Origin: Candidatus Fimenecus sp.
GTDB lineage: Bacteria; Bacillota; Clostridia; Oscillospirales; Acutalibacteraceae
Length of the DNA stretch: 64,000 bases
Reading direction: 5' to 3'
Assembly: GCA_045631225.1 (NCBI GenBank)
Contig: JAZQUG010000044.1
Span: 46,700-110,699 of the forward strand
The stretch's first letter is position 1. Each line of letters opens with the position of its first letter. The notes below the pieces were generated by a model. It was not told the origin of the DNA and did not search any database. It saw only the letters and a list, made by a program, of their open reading frames with translations. Made by a program: the position numbers and the translations under genes. This document shows, piece after piece, positions 3,816 to 52,125 of this stretch.

Positions 3816-3944
3816 AAATTCCACTCCAAACCATATTTTATTTAGAAATTTATATATAAATATAATTATATTATTTTAATGCGATAAAGTCAACAATTAT
3901 TTAAGTACAGAATGAATAATAAATCGGAGTTTGTAGGGATAAAG

Positions 3945-3960
3945 ACAAATTATAATTTGT
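3945..3960. repeat. Perfect 16-bp palindrome ACAAATTATAATTTGT (copy 1 of a recurrent intergenic motif)
   Basis: Read directly. GGAGTTTGTAGGGAT (3926-3940) lies 4 bp to its left and resembles the ends of the elements at 25496 and 53046. Confidence 0.7.
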
Positions 3961-3993
3961 TCAAATCCCACTCACTCATCAAAACAAAAAATA

Positions 3994-4385
3994 AGACCAC
4001 AGGCACTTCCGATGGTCTTTTACGGCTGGGGAATAGGGATTCGAATTATAGCTTCACAATGCAAATCTCCATTCGCATTGTGCTCTTCGCTAAAAACAGT
4101 CCACCGGACTGTTTTCTTAACGCTCAGACCCTCCCAGGTTCGAATCCTATAACTTATCAAAAAACAAAAATAAAACCACCGGATATTTCCGATGGTCTTT
4201 TATGGCTGGGGAATAGGGATTCGAATTATAGCTTCACAATGCGAATCTCCATTCGCATTGTGCTCTTCACTAAAAACAGTCCACCGGACTGTTTTCTTAA
4301 CGCTCAGACCCTCCCGGGTTCGAATCCTATTAACTTATCAAAAAATAAAAAATAAAAACCACCGGATATTTCCGATGGTCTTTTA
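3994..4385 (-). repeat. Two tandem ~180-bp units: terminator + tRNA-Gln 3' end + 120-nt structured module
   Basis: Unit A is roughly 4011-4190 and unit B roughly 4191-4373; they are nearly identical. The 35-bp block GATGGTCTTTTAYGGCTGGGGAATAGGGATTCGAA occurs at 4011, 4191 and 4374. The module (4212-4331 in B) is closed by the inverted repeat AATAGGGATTCGAA/TTCGAATCCTATT. It contains two perfect hairpins (4235-4262 and 4273-4295). Confidence 0.8.
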
Positions 4386-4459
4386 TGGCTGGGGAATAGG
4401 GATTCGAACCCCAACAAACAGAGTCAGAGTCTGTCGTGCTACCGTTACACTATTCCCCA
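4386..4459 (-). tRNA. tRNA-Gln (anticodon CUG)
   Basis: Hand-folded cloverleaf. Acceptor stem TGGGGAA/TTCCCCA. D-arm GTGT-AACGGTA-GCAC. Anticodon arm ACAGA-CTCTGAC-TCTGT. T-arm TGGGG-TTCGAAT-CCCTA. Discriminator G plus an encoded CCA. Confidence 0.9.
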
Positions 4460-4471
4460 ACGGCAAAAGCA

Positions 4472-4500
4472 ATTATATAGCAATGTTTTGGAATTGTCAA
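4472..4500 (-). promoter_or_regulatory. SigA-type promoter of tRNA-Gln
   Basis: On the minus strand: TTGACA (4500-4495), 17-nt spacer, TATAAT (4477-4472), about 12 nt before the tRNA 5' end. Confidence 0.6.
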
Positions 4501-4517
4501 GTGTTTTTTTATAAAAA

Positions 4518-6161
4518 CTAAAAATCTTTTATAAAATTAGTGATATTTCTTGTAATTAGTTTTTCAGGACAGTCACCAATGCTGTTATTTTTTATAATTA
4601 TATTGTCACTATCCTTTATGTCAAAACACGTTCTTTCACATTTTTTGAACGTATTACCCTCTATTGTGATATTTTTATGCACTGCGCCTGCATATCTCTT
4701 GTTTTCAGGCTTAATGAGAATACCGTTTTCACCACAATAATCAAACTTATTATTTTTGATTGTCATATCCAAACACATTCCGCTTTCATACCAGTTATCT
4801 GCATCATCAGAAAGAAGAATTCCACTCATTGTTGTGCTATAAAAATGATTATTTTCGATATTTGTTTTGCCTCTTGTTGTCAAAAGTAATCCTCGGGTTA
4901 TTATTCTGTCAATTTCATTGTTAACAAACTCAACCTGTGGACAAGCTGTTGCATTTTCAACATATTTTCCAACAACTGCACCGTCAGCTATATCAAGCTT
5001 CAGCTCAACATCATATTCACTAATCATCGCTGAACCAACAACACACGCACTACCCTTTGGCAACAATGTTTCAGGATGAATAAACTCTATTGTGTCACCG
5101 ATTTCAAAAGCATTGTATCCGTGGGACTGAGGATGCATAAATCTTACTGTAATCTTATCATTCTTTTTATCCACAATCTTAAAATGGAATCCGTGAACAT
5201 TCATACAGTCATCACCTGCACCACTGAAATAACAATCCTTGACCGTCACCTTTCCACGGCACATACAAATCTGAATAAAATCAGCAACAGAACACATAAC
5301 TCTTTCTTTTTCAGGTGAAAAATCAAGATTTGTCAATGTAATATTTTCTGTATTCTGTGCTACAAATGCAAGAGAATAATTAAAGCGCTGCTTAACATTA
5401 TGAAGAGTGACATTTTTACTGTTCTGAACAAAAATTCCAGCATATTGACGACGCACATCATAAAGATAATACTTATCTCCCACCTGAAATTTATTTGCAG
5501 TAAAAGTATATGCCCTTATACTTCTTTTTCCTATTTCCGATACCTTAAAAGTATCTCGCAACGGATGATATGTTCGCTGACAGAAATGAGGCTTGTCCTT
5601 TGGGAAATGTGCAATCCACCAAGCAGTTTTTGATTTATCTTTAAATTTTCGCTTATAATCGTGGCCAACAAAATAAAGTTTTCCTTTTTCGTTTACATAT
5701 TTTGTCTGTTCATCAATCTCATAATCAACATAAAACAGACCTTTATTAATAACTTTCAATTCATGCATTTCAGGGTTATCTGCCGTAATTGTAAGATTCT
5801 GGATTGTTATATTTTCACAAGCATCTATTACTGCATTTGTTGATTTTCCATGAATAATGAATTTTGCACCATTACCATCAACTGTCACATTTTTAAGTCC
5901 GCTAAACCACAAGGGTGCACGATTAAGGTGAGGTGTTTCATCACCTGAAAATTCCTTATCACCTACTGTATTTGTAATATACAATTTTTCTGTACGAAGT
6001 TTTGTGGCATCAATTAAATATGTACCATTTTCGAAAACAATAGTTTTTTCTTCCTCGTCCTGTGGAATAGAGGAAAGAAAATTCTCAAGTTCTGTTTCAC
6101 AATATGTATAAGGTTTTACACCGAAATCTAAAGCATTATAAATCTTCAATTTATTCACCAT
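4518..6161 (-). CDS. Right-handed parallel beta-helix repeat protein (pectin-lyase fold, possible glycosidase)
   Basis: 547 aa with repeated NITI/NVT-type beta-helix rungs and no signal peptide. The family call is by fold-type resemblance only. Confidence 0.55.
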   Translation of the reverse strand: MVNKLKIYNALDFGVKPYTYCETELENFLSSIPQDEEEKTIVFENGTYLIDATKLRTEKLYITNTVGDKEFSGDETPHLNRAPLWFSGLKNVTVDGNGAKFIIHGKSTNAVIDACENITIQNLTITADNPEMHELKVINKGLFYVDYEIDEQTKYVNEKGKLYFVGHDYKRKFKDKSKTAWWIAHFPKDKPHFCQRTYHPLRDTFKVSEIGKRSIRAYTFTANKFQVGDKYYLYDVRRQYAGIFVQNSKNVTLHNVKQRFNYSLAFVAQNTENITLTNLDFSPEKERVMCSVADFIQICMCRGKVTVKDCYFSGAGDDCMNVHGFHFKIVDKKNDKITVRFMHPQSHGYNAFEIGDTIEFIHPETLLPKGSACVVGSAMISEYDVELKLDIADGAVVGKYVENATACPQVEFVNNEIDRIITRGLLLTTRGKTNIENNHFYSTTMSGILLSDDADNWYESGMCLDMTIKNNKFDYCGENGILIKPENKRYAGAVHKNITIEGNTFKKCERTCFDIKDSDNIIIKNNSIGDCPEKLITRNITNFIKDF

Positions 6162-11268: not shown

Positions 11269-11824
11269 AAAAGATATTAGAAAAACGCTGAAAGAAAAGC
11301 GTAAAAATATTTCCAAAGAAAAAAAGATAATATACGATAAGGCGATAAGTGAAACAATCACTGCTTCCGATTACTTTAAAAATGCAAAGCAAGTTCTGGT
11401 GTTTTCTTCAACTGATGACGAATTTGACACAAGCTATATAATTGAGCGTTGTCGCAATGATGGAAAATCAATTTTCTATCCTGTTTGTACTGACAGCAAC
11501 GGAAATATGAAGTTTTTTAAAGTTGATTCCAAGAACGACTTAACAGTTGGAATGTATGGTATTTCAGAACCGAAGCCTTATTGTAAAGAGTATACACCAA
11601 AAGAAAATGATATTATCATTGTGCCGTGCCTTTCCGTTGATAAAAACGGATATCGAATCGGTTACGGCAAAGGATATTACGACAGATTCTTAAAAAATTT
11701 TAATGGTGTTAGTATTTGTCCGTGTCACGAAGAAATGTTGACAGATACTTTGCCCACAGACGAATATGATATTAAAGTAAATATTATCGTGACACAAAAT
11801 TCAACAAAGGAGGTAATCCTGTGA
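11261..11824 (+). CDS. 5-formyltetrahydrofolate cyclo-ligase
   Basis: GYGKGYYDRFL motif. ATG at 11261 overlaps the upstream stop. Confidence 0.85.
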   Translation: MDKKDIRKTLKEKRKNISKEKKIIYDKAISETITASDYFKNAKQVLVFSSTDDEFDTSYIIERCRNDGKSIFYPVCTDSNGNMKFFKVDSKNDLTVGMYGISEPKPYCKEYTPKENDIIIVPCLSVDKNGYRIGYGKGYYDRFLKNFNGVSICPCHEEMLTDTLPTDEYDIKVNIIVTQNSTKEVIL

Positions 11825-13395
11825 GTAAATTTCAAGATGAATTTTCAAACAATTCTTATGAAGACCTTTTAAATGAATACGCAGGGAACTCTATTACAAG
11901 CAAACCAATCAAAAATCCTGAAGAAAGAAAAAGTGCTCCTGTTTACCGTGAACAACCGGATTCAAGCCGTGACATTTCTTCATTCAGTGATAATTTTCCT
12001 GCAGACGAAAAGAAAAAGGCTCAATCTTTTGATATTGACTTATTAAAAGCTTACGAAGAGCCTGTTCAAAGACGACCTGTAAAAAAGGAAGAACCACAGA
12101 ATAAAGGCAAGTTCACAGTTAACGCTGACAATGCCAAAACTTTTGCAATCGGTGTTGTTAACAAAGTGAGAACTGTTGCTGACAATATAAGAGAAAATGC
12201 AAATGCAGCTGCTGAGCAAGTTAAAGAACAAAATGCAGAGCAAATATCAGAAGATATTGAAAACAACAATAAAAAGAAGAAAAAGAAAATTACTTTTGCA
12301 GATGTTGTTGGTCATACTGTAAACTCATTTCGTGAAAATAAACAGCAATTTGTAGCATTTGGTTGCTGTCTTCTTGTATCATTTATACTCGCAGGCTTTG
12401 CCATCAGTTGTGTCAACGATGTTTTTGCCATAAACCGTGACGGTGAAGAAACAATTGAAGTTGTTTTACCTGATAACGCTGATACGGCTGAAGCAATAAA
12501 AGTTCTTGATAAAGCAGGACTTATCAAAAACAGCATTTTCTGTAATTTATTTGCCAAGGTTATGGGTGTCAGTGATGACAATTATCTTGCAGGTATTTAC
12601 TATTTTACAGATGATATGGGTATTGAAAAAATGCTCACTCGGTTTAAGACAAGTAGTACAAGAGGCACTATTATAAGCATCACAATTCCTGAGGGCTATA
12701 CTGTTGACCAGGTATTTGAAAGACTTGAAAAGAATAATATCTGTACAAAAGAATCTCTTTACAGAATTCTCGATACTGTTGATTTCGGTAACGAATATGA
12801 CTTCATTGCAAAAATCGATAACAAAGATGAACGATACTGTATTCTTGAGGGTTATCTTTTCCCTGCTACCTACGAATTTGAGCAAGGTGCTGAACCGGGT
12901 TCTGTTATCCGTAAATTCCTTAACACTTTTAACTCACGCTGGTCAGAGGAATATGCTGCAAAGGCTACAGAGCTTGGAATGAGTGTTGACGAAATAATCA
13001 CACTTGCATCAATTCTTGAAAAAGAAGGTACAGGTGAAGGTCAGTTCCTCCAGATTTCTTCTGTTCTTCACAACAGACTTAACCGTTCAGGACTTTATCC
13101 GACACTTGACTGTAACTCAACCAAGGACTATGTAAAAAACACTATTGCAAAGCGTATTACAACTCCTGAAATCAACAAATATGTTGTAAGCTATAACACT
13201 TATGAAATTGCAGGTTTGCCACCAAGTGCTATCTGTAATCCCGGATTAGATGCTATTGAATCAGCTCTTTTCCCTACTCCATCACAGAATTATTTCTTCA
13301 GACACGATAAAAACAACAAAATTTACCTTGCTGAAACTATTGAAGAGCATAATGCAAACGGTAGAGAAGTTCAGCGTGTAAATTCAGGAGGTTAA
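11821..13395 (+). CDS. mltG: Endolytic murein transglycosylase MltG (YceG-like) with a long disordered N-terminus
   Basis: One TM helix, then the YceG domain (LEGYLFPATYEF). GTG start has a GGAGG RBS. Confidence 0.85.
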   Translation: MSKFQDEFSNNSYEDLLNEYAGNSITSKPIKNPEERKSAPVYREQPDSSRDISSFSDNFPADEKKKAQSFDIDLLKAYEEPVQRRPVKKEEPQNKGKFTVNADNAKTFAIGVVNKVRTVADNIRENANAAAEQVKEQNAEQISEDIENNNKKKKKKITFADVVGHTVNSFRENKQQFVAFGCCLLVSFILAGFAISCVNDVFAINRDGEETIEVVLPDNADTAEAIKVLDKAGLIKNSIFCNLFAKVMGVSDDNYLAGIYYFTDDMGIEKMLTRFKTSSTRGTIISITIPEGYTVDQVFERLEKNNICTKESLYRILDTVDFGNEYDFIAKIDNKDERYCILEGYLFPATYEFEQGAEPGSVIRKFLNTFNSRWSEEYAAKATELGMSVDEIITLASILEKEGTGEGQFLQISSVLHNRLNRSGLYPTLDCNSTKDYVKNTIAKRITTPEINKYVVSYNTYEIAGLPPSAICNPGLDAIESALFPTPSQNYFFRHDKNNKIYLAETIEEHNANGREVQRVNSGG

Positions 13396-25495: not shown

Positions 25496-25716
25496 GGAGT
25501 TTATCGGGATGAATAATGAAGTATTGCTACGCAATATGAAGTAATCTACGATTATTAAGTATTTATCGTTGATAAATATGAAGTAAAGTAAATCCTTTCA
25601 TATGCCGTAAGGCATACTTCATAGCAACGCTACTTCATATCCGTCAGGATACTTCATAAATCAAACGGATTTACTTCATTGTGGCGAAGCCACATCTCCC
25701 CGATAAATTATAATTT
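25496..25716. mobile_element. MITE/REP-like non-coding element with an internal iteron-like array (E1)
   Basis: Terminal inverted repeat TTTATCGGG (25500-25508) / CCCCGATAAA (25698-25707). Seven ATGAAGTA/TACTTCAT octamers inside. Ends in AAATTATAATTT (25705-25716). Confidence 0.5.
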
Positions 25717-27978: not shown

Positions 27979-28056
27979 TTATAACATTACGTTATAAAAT
28001 TGATTATATAACAATTTGTTATGTAAGTCAATATAGCATTTTGTTATGTGACATAA
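27979..28056. promoter_or_regulatory. Three inverted-repeat operators between the M23 peptidase and XRE genes
   Basis: TTATAAC-ATTAC-GTTATAA (27979-27997), ATAACAA-T-TTGTTAT (28008-28022) and TTATGT-G-ACATAA (28044-28056). All share GTTAT/ATAAC half-sites. Confidence 0.55.
28003..28031 (-). promoter_or_regulatory. SigA-type promoter of the M23 peptidase gene
   Basis: On the minus strand: TTGACT (28031-28026), 17-nt spacer, TATAAT (28008-28003). The middle operator lies almost entirely within the spacer, overlapping the -10 by one base. Confidence 0.6.
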
Positions 28057-28075
28057 TAGCCTTGAGGTGTTTTGT

Positions 28076-50400: not shown

Positions 50401-50655
50401 GAAGTTGATACAGAAAACAATGATACGCTCAATTTCCCTATTGATAAGGATATAATTGTTCTTTCTGCTGTTGCAGATACAAATGAACAGTTATGTGAGC
50501 TTTCTTGTGAACTTTATGACAAAATCGAAGGTCGCCAATTCACTTACAAGGAAAACCTCAAAGAAAAGCTTACATATTTAAACTGCAAAAACTCATATCT
50601 TCTCAATGACAAAGGTGGAGCAATTAAACACAGAAATAAGGGAAGGAGAAAATAA
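47500..50655 (+). CDS. GH38 alpha-mannosidase
   Basis: 1051 aa. N-terminal metal-site motif SNAHLDTIWSW and HQFHDDLPGTS. Confidence 0.88.
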   Translation: MAKKKVYTISNAHLDTIWSWDFETTVGEYIRNTLTENFQHFRKYPDYKFNFEGSYRYELMKEYYPEMWEQMKSYIAQGKWNVCGSAFENGDVNVPSPEALFRNILLGNEYFDKNFGKRSCDIFLPDCFGFGYALPSIMHHANLKGFTTQKLTWGSAYGIPFDLGKWYGVDGNYVYGNTNPGSYTSVLLKVRDKKFVKDKLKSNEQYDLPMTAIFHGVGDRGGAPKEPSVKTVCDEIKKNNTSDVEVLSAPADLIFRDIDALPENVKQKLPVWNNELVMTNHAVGGYTSRAIGKRWNRRNEEIADMAERACVTAMVTKGYNYPQEPLTKAWKRVIAHQFHDDLPGTSVQRAYRRSWNDYAMSLNQFANEYEGAVKSIASKIDTSFVKGTAVVVNNPMEYERTSVVTVNIPAKFCGKNITVLDADGKEYAAQIASVKNGIATILMCVTVPPMGYKAFDIRNKKCQVKSKLFASIMMLENEKYRVVLNSNGDISSIFDKELKKEVLSKPITTGIFDYNGSKDWPAWELNFDELNREPQNSTKIKTVKVIENGPCRVALEIVKAFGDSTFTSVVALSRGGKVVEVYTETEWRSKRHLAKEVFSFSAESPVATYDLGLGAIKRGNMNDKLFEVPAQKWADITDKDEQFGVSVISECKYGWDKFDNSTLRLTLMHTPYKNYKVDSMQSMMELGLNRYSYAIYSHEGTVAHDTQTEARNFVMPMASFVVSKHDGEYSEYSFGSLSGNAIIRAMKKAENSDEIIVRIGESEKKTQKDITLSLNCDVVSAREIYASEEHIADVPLTDGKLVFDLKPYEIKSFAIKVKTGEATNNTLTNIPLLGNIEAFSTNAKPTGKLPVINKSIPKEIVPQTVASAGVDFPIPEKAMLCCGQSLLLPTDTKKVHLLVASLNGDKYAKINDYAYKINDITEYYAGWDLYDFKEVAYTKQGKLGYEFTHSHTETGDAQCAQLFFWHIEVDTENNDTLNFPIDKDIIVLSAVADTNEQLCELSCELYDKIEGRQFTYKENLKEKLTYLNCKNSYLLNDKGGAIKHRNKGRRK

Positions 50656-50658
50656 GCG

Positions 50659-52125
50659 ATGGCAGAAAACAAAGGCGACATCCGTTATGTCGGTGTCAAG
50701 GAAACACTTGCCTATGGTATTGCAAATGCCGGACAATGCTTCGGATATAACATTATCGCAGGTAGTTATCTTTCACTTTTCTTCACAAAGGTTTTTGGTG
50801 TTCCTCCTGAAGCCGTTGCAGCAATGATGCTGTTTTTAGGTCTCTGGGACACATTTAACGACCCACTTATGGGTACAATCGTTGACAAGACACGAACAAG
50901 ATACGGAAAACTCCGTCCATATCTCTTAATTATCCCTGTTCCATTAGGTCTTGCAACAATTCTTCTTTTTGCAGGTCCACAGCTTCTTGGTGACAAAGTA
51001 GAGGTAACAGCGAAAATTATTTATATGTTTGTCACCTATTTCTTCTGGGAATTGTTCTACACTTTAGGTGATGTTCCGTTCTGGGGAATGAGTGCTGCTA
51101 TCAGCCCATCACCGTCTGACAGAACAAGAGTAATTTCATCAGCAAGATTCATTTCAGGTATTCTCGGTGGTATTTCAACACCGATTCTTACAGTTCTTAT
51201 GGACTTAAGCAATAACGGTACAATCCCGCTTTCACTTTCTCAGGTTTTCTTGCTTATGTCAATTATTTCGGCAACCTACGGAATGGGACTTTTCTCATTG
51301 GCAGGCTTCTGCACAAAAGAAAGAGTCGTACAAACAGTTAAAGAACCAAGCGTTCTCGACGGATTCAAAGCATTACTCAGAAATAAACCTCTTCTTTTAA
51401 TTGTTATCGGAAATGTATTGTCAGCAATCAGCGGTATCGGTAATTTCTTCCAGGCATACTATTATTCCGAAGTTGTTCAGATGAATTCACTTACAATCAT
51501 CATTACACTTCCGGGAACAATTTTAGGCTTTATTACATATCTTCTTATTCCAAAGGTTAAGGAAAAGTTTGACAACAGACAGATTATCTTCCTTAACGGT
51601 TTTGTAAGACTTGTAGTTGGCATTATTGTTTTCCTTGTGGGTGTAACCTGCTTTACAAACCTTTGGGTTGTTGTGCCGCTTCTTATGATTCAGAATTTCC
51701 TTTTCAGCTTCTTTAACACAATCAATATGGTTATTCCTACTGAAATGATTGGTGACACAATCGACTATATGGAATGGAAAACAGGCGAAAGAAATGAAGG
51801 CGTTTCATTCTCTGTGCTTACATTTGTTGGTAAGCTTACAGGTTCAATTTCAGGAACTTTAGGTAATCTCTTACTTCCTTTGATTGGTCTTTCATTCGTT
51901 CAAATCAGTGCAACAGAAACAATGACTGTAAAAGCTTATGATTACACAGATACTCTTATCTGGGGTATGTTCACATTAGCTCCTGCTATTTTAGGTCTTC
52001 TTCCACTTATTCCATATATCTGGTATGACCTTACAGGTGAAAAACTCAAGCAAGTTCGTGAAGAAATGGCTGAACGCAGAACTGTGCTTTCAGCTGAAGT
52101 TTCAGGAGGTGGCAAAAATGAGTAA
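50659..52125 (+). CDS. GPH/MFS-family glycoside-cation symporter
   Basis: 488 aa, about 12 TM helices, GPH-type motif LWDTFNDPLMGTIVDKTRTRYGKLRPY. Confidence 0.85.
   Translation: MAENKGDIRYVGVKETLAYGIANAGQCFGYNIIAGSYLSLFFTKVFGVPPEAVAAMMLFLGLWDTFNDPLMGTIVDKTRTRYGKLRPYLLIIPVPLGLATILLFAGPQLLGDKVEVTAKIIYMFVTYFFWELFYTLGDVPFWGMSAAISPSPSDRTRVISSARFISGILGGISTPILTVLMDLSNNGTIPLSLSQVFLLMSIISATYGMGLFSLAGFCTKERVVQTVKEPSVLDGFKALLRNKPLLLIVIGNVLSAISGIGNFFQAYYYSEVVQMNSLTIIITLPGTILGFITYLLIPKVKEKFDNRQIIFLNGFVRLVVGIIVFLVGVTCFTNLWVVVPLLMIQNFLFSFFNTINMVIPTEMIGDTIDYMEWKTGERNEGVSFSVLTFVGKLTGSISGTLGNLLLPLIGLSFVQISATETMTVKAYDYTDTLIWGMFTLAPAILGLLPLIPYIWYDLTGEKLKQVREEMAERRTVLSAEVSGGGKNE

Follow-up and report, generated by a model that had tools for sequence, protein, structure and literature searches.

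We describe a large family of small cassettes, absent from Rfam 15 and from the literature that we searched, which fold strand-specifically and lie at a fixed place behind tRNA genes. All of the tRNA-linked members repeat one architecture, with arms that fit the local tRNA. The window, i.e. the whole 64,000-nt stretch of Candidatus Fimenecus sp. DNA analysed here, holds an array of two full 180/183-nt units and a truncated third, behind a tRNA-Gln(CTG) gene.

This locus had been singled out in a first-pass annotation made from the letters alone, and all of its sequence statements hold. A 35-nt block occurs at 4011, 4191 and 4374 and includes the reverse complement of the last 23 nt of tRNA-Gln(CTG), TTCGAATCCCTATTCCCCAGCCA. 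There is one complete tRNA only, at 4386-4459 on the minus strand (ARAGORN and Rfam). The two perfect hairpins, of 12 bp (4235-4262) and 10 bp (4273-4295 and 4093-4115), are present and did not occur once in 100 shuffles; the copy of the 12-bp hairpin at 4055-4082 has one mismatch. The features of the locus are given below, in the order in which the tRNA strand is read.

4472-4500, minus strand: sigma-70 promoter of the tRNA gene, TTGACA-17-TATAAT (12/12)
4386-4459, minus strand: complete tRNA-Gln(CTG) gene with its CCA encoded (ARAGORN; Rfam, 64.5 bits)
4355-4383, minus strand: terminator 1, AAAGACCATCGG-AAAT-ATCCGGTGGTTTT, immediately 3' of the CCA and also present in the orthologous locus L185
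4319-4331, minus strand: 5' arm A' of unit B, AAUAGGAUUCGAA, complementary to tRNA positions ~54-67; its partner is the 3' copy A
4309-4318, minus strand: mini-hairpin P2 of unit B, CCC-GGGA-GGG, the loop being of GNRA type in the tRNA sense only
4264-4308, minus strand: head domain of unit B, i.e. stem2, an internal loop and the conserved hairpin (4273-4295)
4235-4262, minus strand: variable hairpin of unit B, 12 bp with a GGAG loop, of a subtype not found elsewhere
4203-4225, minus strand: 3' copy A of unit B, equal to tRNA positions 54-76, TTCGAATCCCTATTCCCCAGCCA
4172-4200, minus strand: terminator 2, a copy of terminator 1
4139-4150, minus strand: 5' arm A' of unit A, AUAGGAUUCGAA
4129-4138, minus strand: P2 of unit A, CCU-GGGA-GGG, with a U.G wobble where unit B has C-G
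4084-4128, minus strand: head domain of unit A, with the conserved hairpin at 4093-4115 and GCGAAGA as the 3' strand of stem2
4055-4082, minus strand: variable hairpin of unit A, with a single G.U in the tRNA sense
4023-4045, minus strand: 3' copy A of unit A, which ends in CCG, not CCA
3993-4020, minus strand: terminator 3, a diverged copy
3959-3980, minus strand: degenerate third anti-T-arm, GATGAGTGAGTGGGATTTGAAC, homologous to the solo arm of L185

Tandem Repeats Finder reports a period of 180 nt with 2.5 copies over 3959-4408 (score 752). Units A and B are 92% alike, and a 67-nt direct repeat, made of the terminator and the last 23 nt of the tRNA, occurs three times in the window; we infer that unequal recombination between these repeats produced the array. 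The degenerate third arm beyond terminator 3 had been missed in the first-pass annotation. Terminator 1 directly follows the CCA of the tRNA, and each 3' copy likewise has a terminator behind it. The units have no promoter of their own on either strand, and the tRNA promoter is the only promoter-like candidate driver. Within 4-7 kb of the array there is neither an integrase nor a transposase gene; the annotation had likewise noted the absence of an integrase. The neighbouring genes encode leuCD-type aconitase subunits, an AHAS small subunit, an aldose epimerase, a beta-helix protein, an amidase, ThyX and Tmk. The two plus-strand ORFs that overlie the repeat, called artefacts in the annotation, have no Pfam match.

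Read in the tRNA sense, a cassette consists of a terminator, a T-rich spacer, arm A', P2, stem2 with its near-invariant hairpin, a variable hairpin or hairpins that differ from lineage to lineage, a linker and copy A. The inverted repeat that had been read as closing the module, AATAGG(G)ATTCGAA / TTCGAATCCTATT, is present, with a one-base bulge. Stem2 encloses the conserved hairpin AAAACAGTCCGGTGGACTGTTTT, whose 10-bp stem and apex are AAAACAGUCC-GGU-GGACUGUUUU. In unit B, stem2 joins UCUGAGC and GUGAAGA with tandem G.A pairs and is accompanied by an asymmetric internal loop, GUUAAG/UA; a linker of 9 nt separates the 12-bp hairpin, with its GGAG loop, from copy A. At minimum free energy, unit B folds into a four-way junction that the A'/A helix closes, and the 3' tail CCCCAGCCA stays free. 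Both strands fold well beyond shuffles (z = -4.2 and -5.9). Neither unit is called as a tRNA by ARAGORN or by Rfam, including a scan at E <= 10, and 4386-4459 alone scores as one. The Rfam 15 scan of 3850-4560 at that threshold gave nothing above chance, with no YrlA/Y-RNA or other family over the units. The predicted unit RNA would arise from read-through of the tRNA terminator and would form a cloverleaf-like four-way junction with a free acceptor-strand/NCCA tail.

The module is neither unique to this locus nor, within the resources searched, part of a described family. Its conserved 23-nt hairpin has more than 120 exact matches among contigs taken at one genome per species. This count is a lower bound, and the following tallies of tRNA-linked loci and anticodons come from the matches listed. 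At least 33 loci have a tRNA gene at a distance of 65-120 nt from the hairpin, and the relative orientation of the two never varies. The tRNAs concerned cover at least 17 anticodons (Glu, three for Arg, two for Ala, Tyr, Trp, three for Leu, two for Ser, Pro, Gln, Thr and Met). Among the matches listed the hosts are mostly Ruminococcus, Oscillospiraceae, Acutalibacteraceae and other Clostridia from gut and rumen, many of them uncultured, with a few further matches in Treponema, a Prevotella MAG, Paracoccus, another Pseudomonadota MAG and Streptococcus sobrinus. Sixteen more exact matches are found in viral contigs. Many of the matches sit at contig ends, as is typical of repeats.

Five features characterize the tRNA-linked members: a tRNA on the same strand 65-120 nt away, an anti-T-arm, a covarying stem around the hairpin, a 3' tRNA copy running to the CCA, and a terminator behind it. 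Both window units show all five, the CCG end of the copy in unit A being the sole deviation. The cassettes are ~120-200 nt long and have no ORF. They come in two flavours: the repeat is either the tRNA copy alone, with two unlike terminators, or the copy plus the terminator (60-67 nt), as in the window. The apex loop of the conserved hairpin varies between GGU, UGC and AGU.

Searches for an existing description of the family were negative throughout. At the gathering score and at E <= 10, Rfam finds only tRNAs and one tmRNA in this region and in 38 related loci, and no family over the modules. A blastn search with one unit against phage and plasmid collections gave no match, the 12-bp hairpin subtype of the window has no exact match in metagenomes, and a literature search for the hairpin sequence and related topics found no description. 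When all ORFs of 120 loci were clustered, no enzyme gene, be it for a recombinase, a transposase or a reverse transcriptase, recurred near the hairpin; the only recurrent neighbour families in 8-kb flanks were ABC transporters and rpsI/rplM.

The arms are derived from the target. Across the family the direct copy comprises the last 18-23 nt of the local tRNA. In 23 of 27 modules its last base is tRNA position 76, and its first is position 59 (nine modules), 58 (five), 56 (four), 55 (two) or 54 (the window). The inverted arm, complementary to the T-loop, to the 3' strand of the T-stem and to the start of the acceptor strand, covers positions 50-54 to 62-68, reaching 72 in two cases, and is absent at all ten module-free tRNAs that were compared. 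Arm and copy pair at positions 59-64 in at least 21 of 26 modules. Beyond position 68 pairing is only at background level, so in most members the acceptor 3' strand and the NCCA are unpaired. One of the longer arms belongs to the tRNA-Ser locus of Ruminococcus sp. JE7B6 (L014), which holds at least three tandem 198-nt units. This arm extends to position 72 and is paired along the entire T-stem and acceptor 3' strand, so that a 12-bp minihelix is formed from which GCCA overhangs.

The first-pass annotation had offered, among three alternatives, a miniature tRNA-targeting element present in tandem. This comes closest to what we find, given a family behind at least 17 kinds of tRNA and a filled/empty polymorphism in related members (see below). 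A classical MITE bears terminal inverted repeats of its own, common to all copies. The cassette does not qualify as one, since the local tRNA is the source of its terminal arms, which differ from one tRNA to the next beside a conserved core.

An origin by reverse transcription was also considered, as an 18-nt copy resembles a PBS or a tRF-3. The CCA is gene-encoded in every tRNA gene examined, so its presence in the copies is uninformative.

Which strand of the cassette folds? In an alignment of 43 head-domain sequences all seven pairs of stem2 vary on both sides. Their covariation is 0.228 vs 0.098 in shuffles, none of 500 reaching it, and 0.05-0.08 when the partners are slid. The conserved hairpin is closed by G:U in 22 of the 43 sequences, by A:U in 15 and by G:C in two, and a G:U pair becomes a C.A mismatch on the opposite strand. 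Of 22 distinct full modules, 19 gain stability in the sense fold relative to the antisense fold (mean -4.3 kcal/mol; Wilcoxon p = 6e-4), and GNRA accounts for 7 of 19 tetraloops in the sense fold vs 0 of 19 in the antisense fold. Inside the module, the window units A and B differ by three substitutions (CCC->CCU in P2, GCGAAG->GUGAAG in stem2 and C->U in the variable hairpin), all of which fall in stems and give G:U in the tRNA sense. It is the tRNA-sense strand that folds, and these signals are compatible both with RNA and with single-stranded DNA. The GNRA loops and tandem G.A pairs point to a function as RNA at least as much as to DNA mobility. The earlier suggestion of a tRNA-like structured RNA finds partial support in the cloverleaf-like junction, the covariation and the GNRA loops, but by Rfam and ARAGORN the unit is neither a tRNA nor a YrlA/Y-RNA.

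The history of the window locus can be followed through its relatives. The downstream gene encodes a mutarotase. In its closest homologues (95% and 90% identity) the upstream neighbour is another gene and a tRNA is lacking, and the same is true of its orthologues at 79-95% identity; homology with the relatives of the downstream gene resumes near 3895. L185 is the tRNA locus orthologous to that of the window: the upstream beta-helix gene, the promoter and the terminator are shared, and the tRNA is identical. Behind its terminator are a spacer and a solo arm, GAAGAGTGACGGGATTCGAACCCGTGAG, only. This solo arm and the degenerate third arm of the window (3980-3959) resemble the 3' part of tRNA-Leu. 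The matching stretch in both full window units is GATAAGTTAATAGGATTCGAAC, and its differences from L185 create complementarity to CCCTATT of tRNA-Gln. The aligned arms suggest that the A'/A helix has undergone compensatory change, or that gene conversion took place. Neither the mutarotase orthologues nor L185 presents a naive empty site, and the proteins that flank the array have no exact sequence on record.

Related members do provide filled and empty sites. Among 109 metagenomic tRNA-Gln loci with the exact 23-nt 3' end and at least 250 nt downstream, 100 are empty behind the terminator and about eight (~8%) have a module-like frame. For example, the filled locus L204 has a 140-nt insert ending in TTATTCCCCAGCCA, and in the empty locus L246 the same flank, 92% identical, directly follows the CCA. 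Three further filled loci (L151, L200 and L212) have ~195 nt, comprising terminator, spacer, arm, core and copy, ahead of a second terminator, which is the one found directly behind the tRNA in the empty loci L228, L224 and L145. The terminator that adjoins the tRNA therefore came with the cassette, and the ancestral one is displaced behind the copy. At the level of sequence comparison, these pairs show that family cassettes were inserted behind the CCA end, ahead of the ancestral terminator; in principle, precise deletion between the direct repeats could also have produced the empty loci.

The core varies in a manner of its own. Members of the L151 type share the tail of the family, with the canonical hairpin replaced by others, the hairpin stem of L155 shows a compensated change, and cores differ widely at the same tRNA. 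One core lineage, GAAGGCGACCGTTAAG-hairpin-TAGGGAGAG..GTTGATGAAA, occupies different tRNA genes. It is found at tRNA-Ala and tRNA-Ser in one complete genome (Ruminococcus sp. JE7B6), and elsewhere at tRNA-Pro, at a tRNA-Leu-like fragment and at one further tRNA. Its arms fit each host tRNA, and conservation starts right behind the anti-T-loop.

The hairpin also occurs away from tRNA genes. In L258 an IS5 transposase gene, of which a Pseudosulfitobacter plasmid carries an intact copy for comparison, is interrupted by ~70 nt made up of stem2, loop and hairpin, with a second hairpin of ~40 nt adjoining. In L099, ~47 nt break the frame of an IS630-type gene. The IS5 and IS630 junctions leave room for a target duplication of ~3 nt at most. 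To judge from these alignments, the head-plus-hairpin unit is mobile on its own. The 23-mer is also found within long intergenic arrays of unrelated GC-rich hairpins, including in other phyla. At four loci it adjoins rpsI at its 3' end. There the head end of the core borders on a duplicate of the final 17 nt of the gene, the core is opposite in orientation to the gene, and no inverted arm is seen. One mechanism may not serve for all of these classes, the rpsI-linked one included. Finally, five viral contigs carry, in this order, a tyrosine integrase, a partial tRNA, two to three tandem units and host genes; the modules of these prophage-bearing contigs lie on the host side of attR.

Several of these properties are known from other systems. 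The cassette is most like a small non-autonomous repeat or insertion element, a cross between REP/BIME-type repeats and tRNA att duplication. REP/BIME, BOX/RUP and Correia-type repeats are also short, ORF-less, multi-copy 3' extragenic hairpins, built as mosaics of interchangeable motifs and often near terminators, and such hairpin units can land inside the genes of other mobile elements. The cassettes resemble these mosaics in having more than 120 matches and varied hairpins around the same 23-mer. Unlike them, the cassettes carry an inverted and a direct copy of the adjoining tRNA 3' end in fixed position and orientation, their arms derive from the target and are not element-borne TIRs, and the 23-mer crosses phyla. 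Nor was any association with a RAYT or other transposase, as known for REP/BIME, seen in the 8-kb flanks of 120 loci. The duplicated att sites of phages and ICEs, and CIMEs, share with the cassettes the flanking direct repeat of a tRNA 3' end, a restored tRNA, an element-borne terminator, tandem accretion and filled/empty polymorphism; in the window the direct repeat beside the restored tRNA is 23 nt, or 67 nt including the terminator. The cassettes differ in that the insert is gene-less and of 120-200 nt, one core family serves at least 17 anticodons, there is an extra inverted arm, the copy mostly lacks the T-loop crossover region, and no integrase is nearby.

Two further comparisons are instructive. 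The integron attC site and CTXphi attP(+), recombined by XerCD, resemble the cassettes by analogy only: they too show strand-specific folding, a target-like duplex made from imperfect inverted repeats, tandem arrays and partly unconserved stems. However, the cassettes have no dif-like site, cassette ORF, linked IntI or phage genes, their target is a tRNA 3' end, and single-stranded DNA intermediates are hypothetical for them. In alignments judged by eye, the flanks GUUAAG, GUAAAG and GGAAG fit GTTRRRY inconsistently, and no GTTRRRY/RYYYAAC boxes as in attC were seen. With tRNA-like RNAs (YrlA/Y-RNA-like RNAs, the tRNA domain of tmRNA, viral TLS, minihelices) the cassettes have in common a tRNA-identical 3' end with NCCA, a T-stem/acceptor helix and a four-way junction. 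In contrast to these RNAs, there is no mimic of the T-loop or D-arm, a core of 90-150 nt takes the place of the T-loop, the acceptor strand is mostly unpaired, and no Rfam match appears even at E <= 10.

Some other candidate identities were set aside. The CUGA...GAA core of a hammerhead ribozyme is incomplete. As read from the alignments, the sequence requirements of a C/D-box-like guide RNA, a MOBQ-type oriT and an IS91 GTTC target are inconsistently met. Binding of CCA by the GGU apex is weakened by the UGC and AGU loops, and for an IscB/TnpB omega-RNA no such genes lie nearby and the copy masks the 5' arm.

How, then, did the 180-nt unit come to lie behind the tRNA? The explanation that we put forward, at about even odds, is that it is a non-autonomous insertion cassette, which recombines by way of the duplicated 3' end of the tRNA and whose copies multiplied here through unequal recombination. 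The entering unit would be [tRNA 3' end - terminator - arm - core], as a circle or a donor fragment, and recombination within the duplicated tRNA 3' end would give exactly the order observed. This might be ordinary recombination, with the universally conserved tRNA gene and the copy serving as homology arms, or, by analogy with CTXphi and attC, the work of a recombinase whose substrate is the folded arm/copy stem; the 2.5-unit array would afterwards result from unequal exchange between the 67-nt repeats. Several points count against such a cassette. The closest relatives of the window locus offer no empty site for comparison, no recombinase, transposase or reverse transcriptase gene recurs beside the modules of the 120 loci, and the re-specification of the arms for a new tRNA is left unaccounted for. 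The possible deletions at the empty loci, the opposite orientation at rpsI and the RNA-like GNRA loops and tandem G.A pairs weigh in the same direction. A more speculative proposal, which we regard as unlikely, addresses the arms directly. The attachment site would be programmable by copying: the arm/copy duplex, as single-stranded DNA or RNA, would imitate the T-stem/acceptor, the hairpin would be a handle for an enzyme acting in trans, and the arms would be rewritten for each tRNA; or else the cassettes would act at the RNA level as mimics of, or guides to, tRNA 3' ends. That target-copying folded arms amount to a mechanism not yet described is, in our view, similarly unlikely, though a real chance.

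The insertion cassette and a functional non-coding RNA are not mutually exclusive. We consider the latter, which is the main rival, possible, though on balance improbable. Such an RNA would be made by read-through from the strong tRNA promoter, end at its own terminator and fold into the four-way junction, with a closing helix of tRNA origin and the acceptor 3' strand and NCCA as a free tail. It would serve as a mimic, decoy or guide for factors that recognise tRNA 3' ends, its match to the tRNA would be under selection, and its patchy distribution would reflect gain and loss. Much of the structural evidence speaks for it: sense-strand covariation and the G:U closing pair, GNRA loops in the sense fold only, the greater stability of that fold in 19 of 22 modules, the substitutions between units A and B that keep G:U, the apparently compensatory change of the 5' arm relative to L185, the 12-bp tRNA-Ser minihelix of L014 with its GCCA overhang, and the terminator behind each copy. 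However, folding of single-stranded DNA that tolerates G:T would yield the same strand signal. There is no promoter of its own on either strand, and a terminator separates the tRNA from the module. A module of any kind is present at just ~8% of the tRNA-Gln loci that share this 3' end, and cores differ widely at the same tRNA. The hairpin unit turns up inside transposase genes and in unrelated intergenic arrays of other phyla, its apex loop is inconstant (GGU, UGC, AGU), and no Rfam family matches.

A directly repeated tRNA 3' end that runs from T-loop to CCA is the textbook att identity block, and the 3' end of rpsI is another integrase target. Could the modules be scars of tRNA-targeting prophages or integrative elements, with attL and attR side by side in the manner of a CIME, or attP-only mini-circles served by an integrase in trans? 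The repeat itself, an insert about the size of an attP, the element-borne terminator that restores termination, the relatives at rpsI and a prophage with a tyrosine integrase integrated in a module-carrying tRNA would all agree with this. We nevertheless find it quite improbable. An integrase normally has one target, and here the same core lies behind at least 17 anticodons; the stems covary and their sequence is not kept, which does not suit arm-type binding sites. The copy usually begins at 58-59 and so lacks the T-loop crossover region and the 5' half of the T-stem, the modules in the prophage case lie on the host side of attR, and there is no integrase near the modules in general or in the window. 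The remaining alternative of the first-pass annotation was a purely local duplication with hairpin-mediated template switching. The tandem 180-nt units, 92% alike and with common 67-nt direct repeats, agree with a local event, and the forward-inverted-forward arrangement of the tRNA 3' end may be read as a pattern of the template-switching type. This accounts for the tandem copy number and nothing more: modules of the same architecture lie behind many tRNAs in more than 100 other genomes, which refutes it as a full explanation, and that the array has no wider meaning is scarcely credible.

These results have a practical side, as the cassettes break assemblies and yield spurious ORFs and tRNA-fragment calls that annotators should learn to recognise. 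They also bear on how mobile DNA uses tRNA genes, its classic landing sites. A direct repeat of a tRNA 3' end has so far implied an island that bears an integrase, and here the same signature comes from gene-less cassettes of 120-200 nt that fold on one strand. If they move by recombination through the copied tRNA tail, they illustrate how a tiny parasite can turn universally conserved genes into portable homology; as RNAs, they would form a new class of tRNA-end mimics. And if the attachment site should prove to be programmable by copying, this would be a new way to target universally conserved genes.

Comparison of the window with two related loci (L129/L130) places a break in synteny at about position 3895. 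These relatives carry a mutarotase that is 90-95% identical to the one downstream of the window array. Their upstream gene is a different one, with some 150 nt between its end and the shared promoter region. In the window, the position of that gene is taken by the beta-helix gene together with the tRNA-Gln array. Tandem Repeats Finder reports three further short tandem repeats in the window, with periods of 18, 25 and 16 and scores of 51-64:

Window, 25511-25563: short tandem repeat
Window, 28006-28058: short tandem repeat
Window, 50634-50669: short tandem repeat

Cassette relatives are also located behind the 3' end of the ribosomal protein S9 gene, rpsI (L022, L033, L063 and L114), in tandem at L114 and L063. 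The final 17 nt of rpsI, stop codon included, are duplicated directly against the head end of these cassettes, whose core lies in the opposite orientation to that of tRNA-class cassettes.

The 23-nt hairpin of the cassette head domain is also found in intergenic arrays of five to eight different GC-rich hairpins (L005, L009, L017, L029, L036, L086, L100, L110 and others). The order of hairpins is conserved across these arrays (...GGGGTGAAT-hairpin-AGAGGGGACGCCCTGCAAGAGAGGGCGTCCCC...), which match no Rfam family and account for about 40% of the genomic 23-mer matches, among the matches listed. In the Alphaproteobacteria/Pseudomonadota, IS5 and IS630-type transposase genes are interrupted by a unit of about 47-70 nt that consists of the covarying stem 2, the loop and the hairpin. 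One of these loci, L258, has a second insertion 10 nt beyond the first, an unrelated hairpin of ~40 nt. Examples of both settings are:

L017, around 3307: intergenic array, GC-rich hairpins around the 23-nt hairpin
L258 (IMG/VR), 11350-11900: hairpin-unit insertion, by comparison with plasmid NZ_CP085158 (L267)
L099, around 7104: hairpin-unit insertion

Outside the Clostridia, Streptococcus sobrinus DSM 20742 (L051) has tandem CAGTCCGGTGGACTGTTTTAACCCTCGCCTAAAAACTAGAGAGCGAGG repeats with the cassette hairpin apex, directly preceded by the stop codon of a gene that we take to be lepA.

At tRNA loci, arrays of mini-hairpins, each of ~18 nt, lie past the second terminator, which follows the 3' tRNA copy of the cassette, in L071, L094, L024 and L198. 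Their spacers read GTGATGC or AATGATG and are followed by the inverse (CATCAC / CATCAT). At L071, L094 and L024, the second terminator has a common core, ATTTGTCnGATAGACAAAT. Around and upstream of 2437, L079 forms a single long, nearly perfect palindrome with the terminator loop at its centre. It is composed of the tRNA 3' end, the two halves of the terminator and the tRNA 3' end again in full reverse complement (TGG included), with the tRNA tail arranged forward-inverted-forward.

In five IMG/VR 3300045988 contigs (L253, L255, L257, L263 and L266), a tyrosine-integrase prophage is integrated in the cassette-bearing tRNA, with two to three tandem 202-nt cassettes downstream of the occupied tRNA. 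These cassettes lie immediately outside attR and form part of the viral contig calls.
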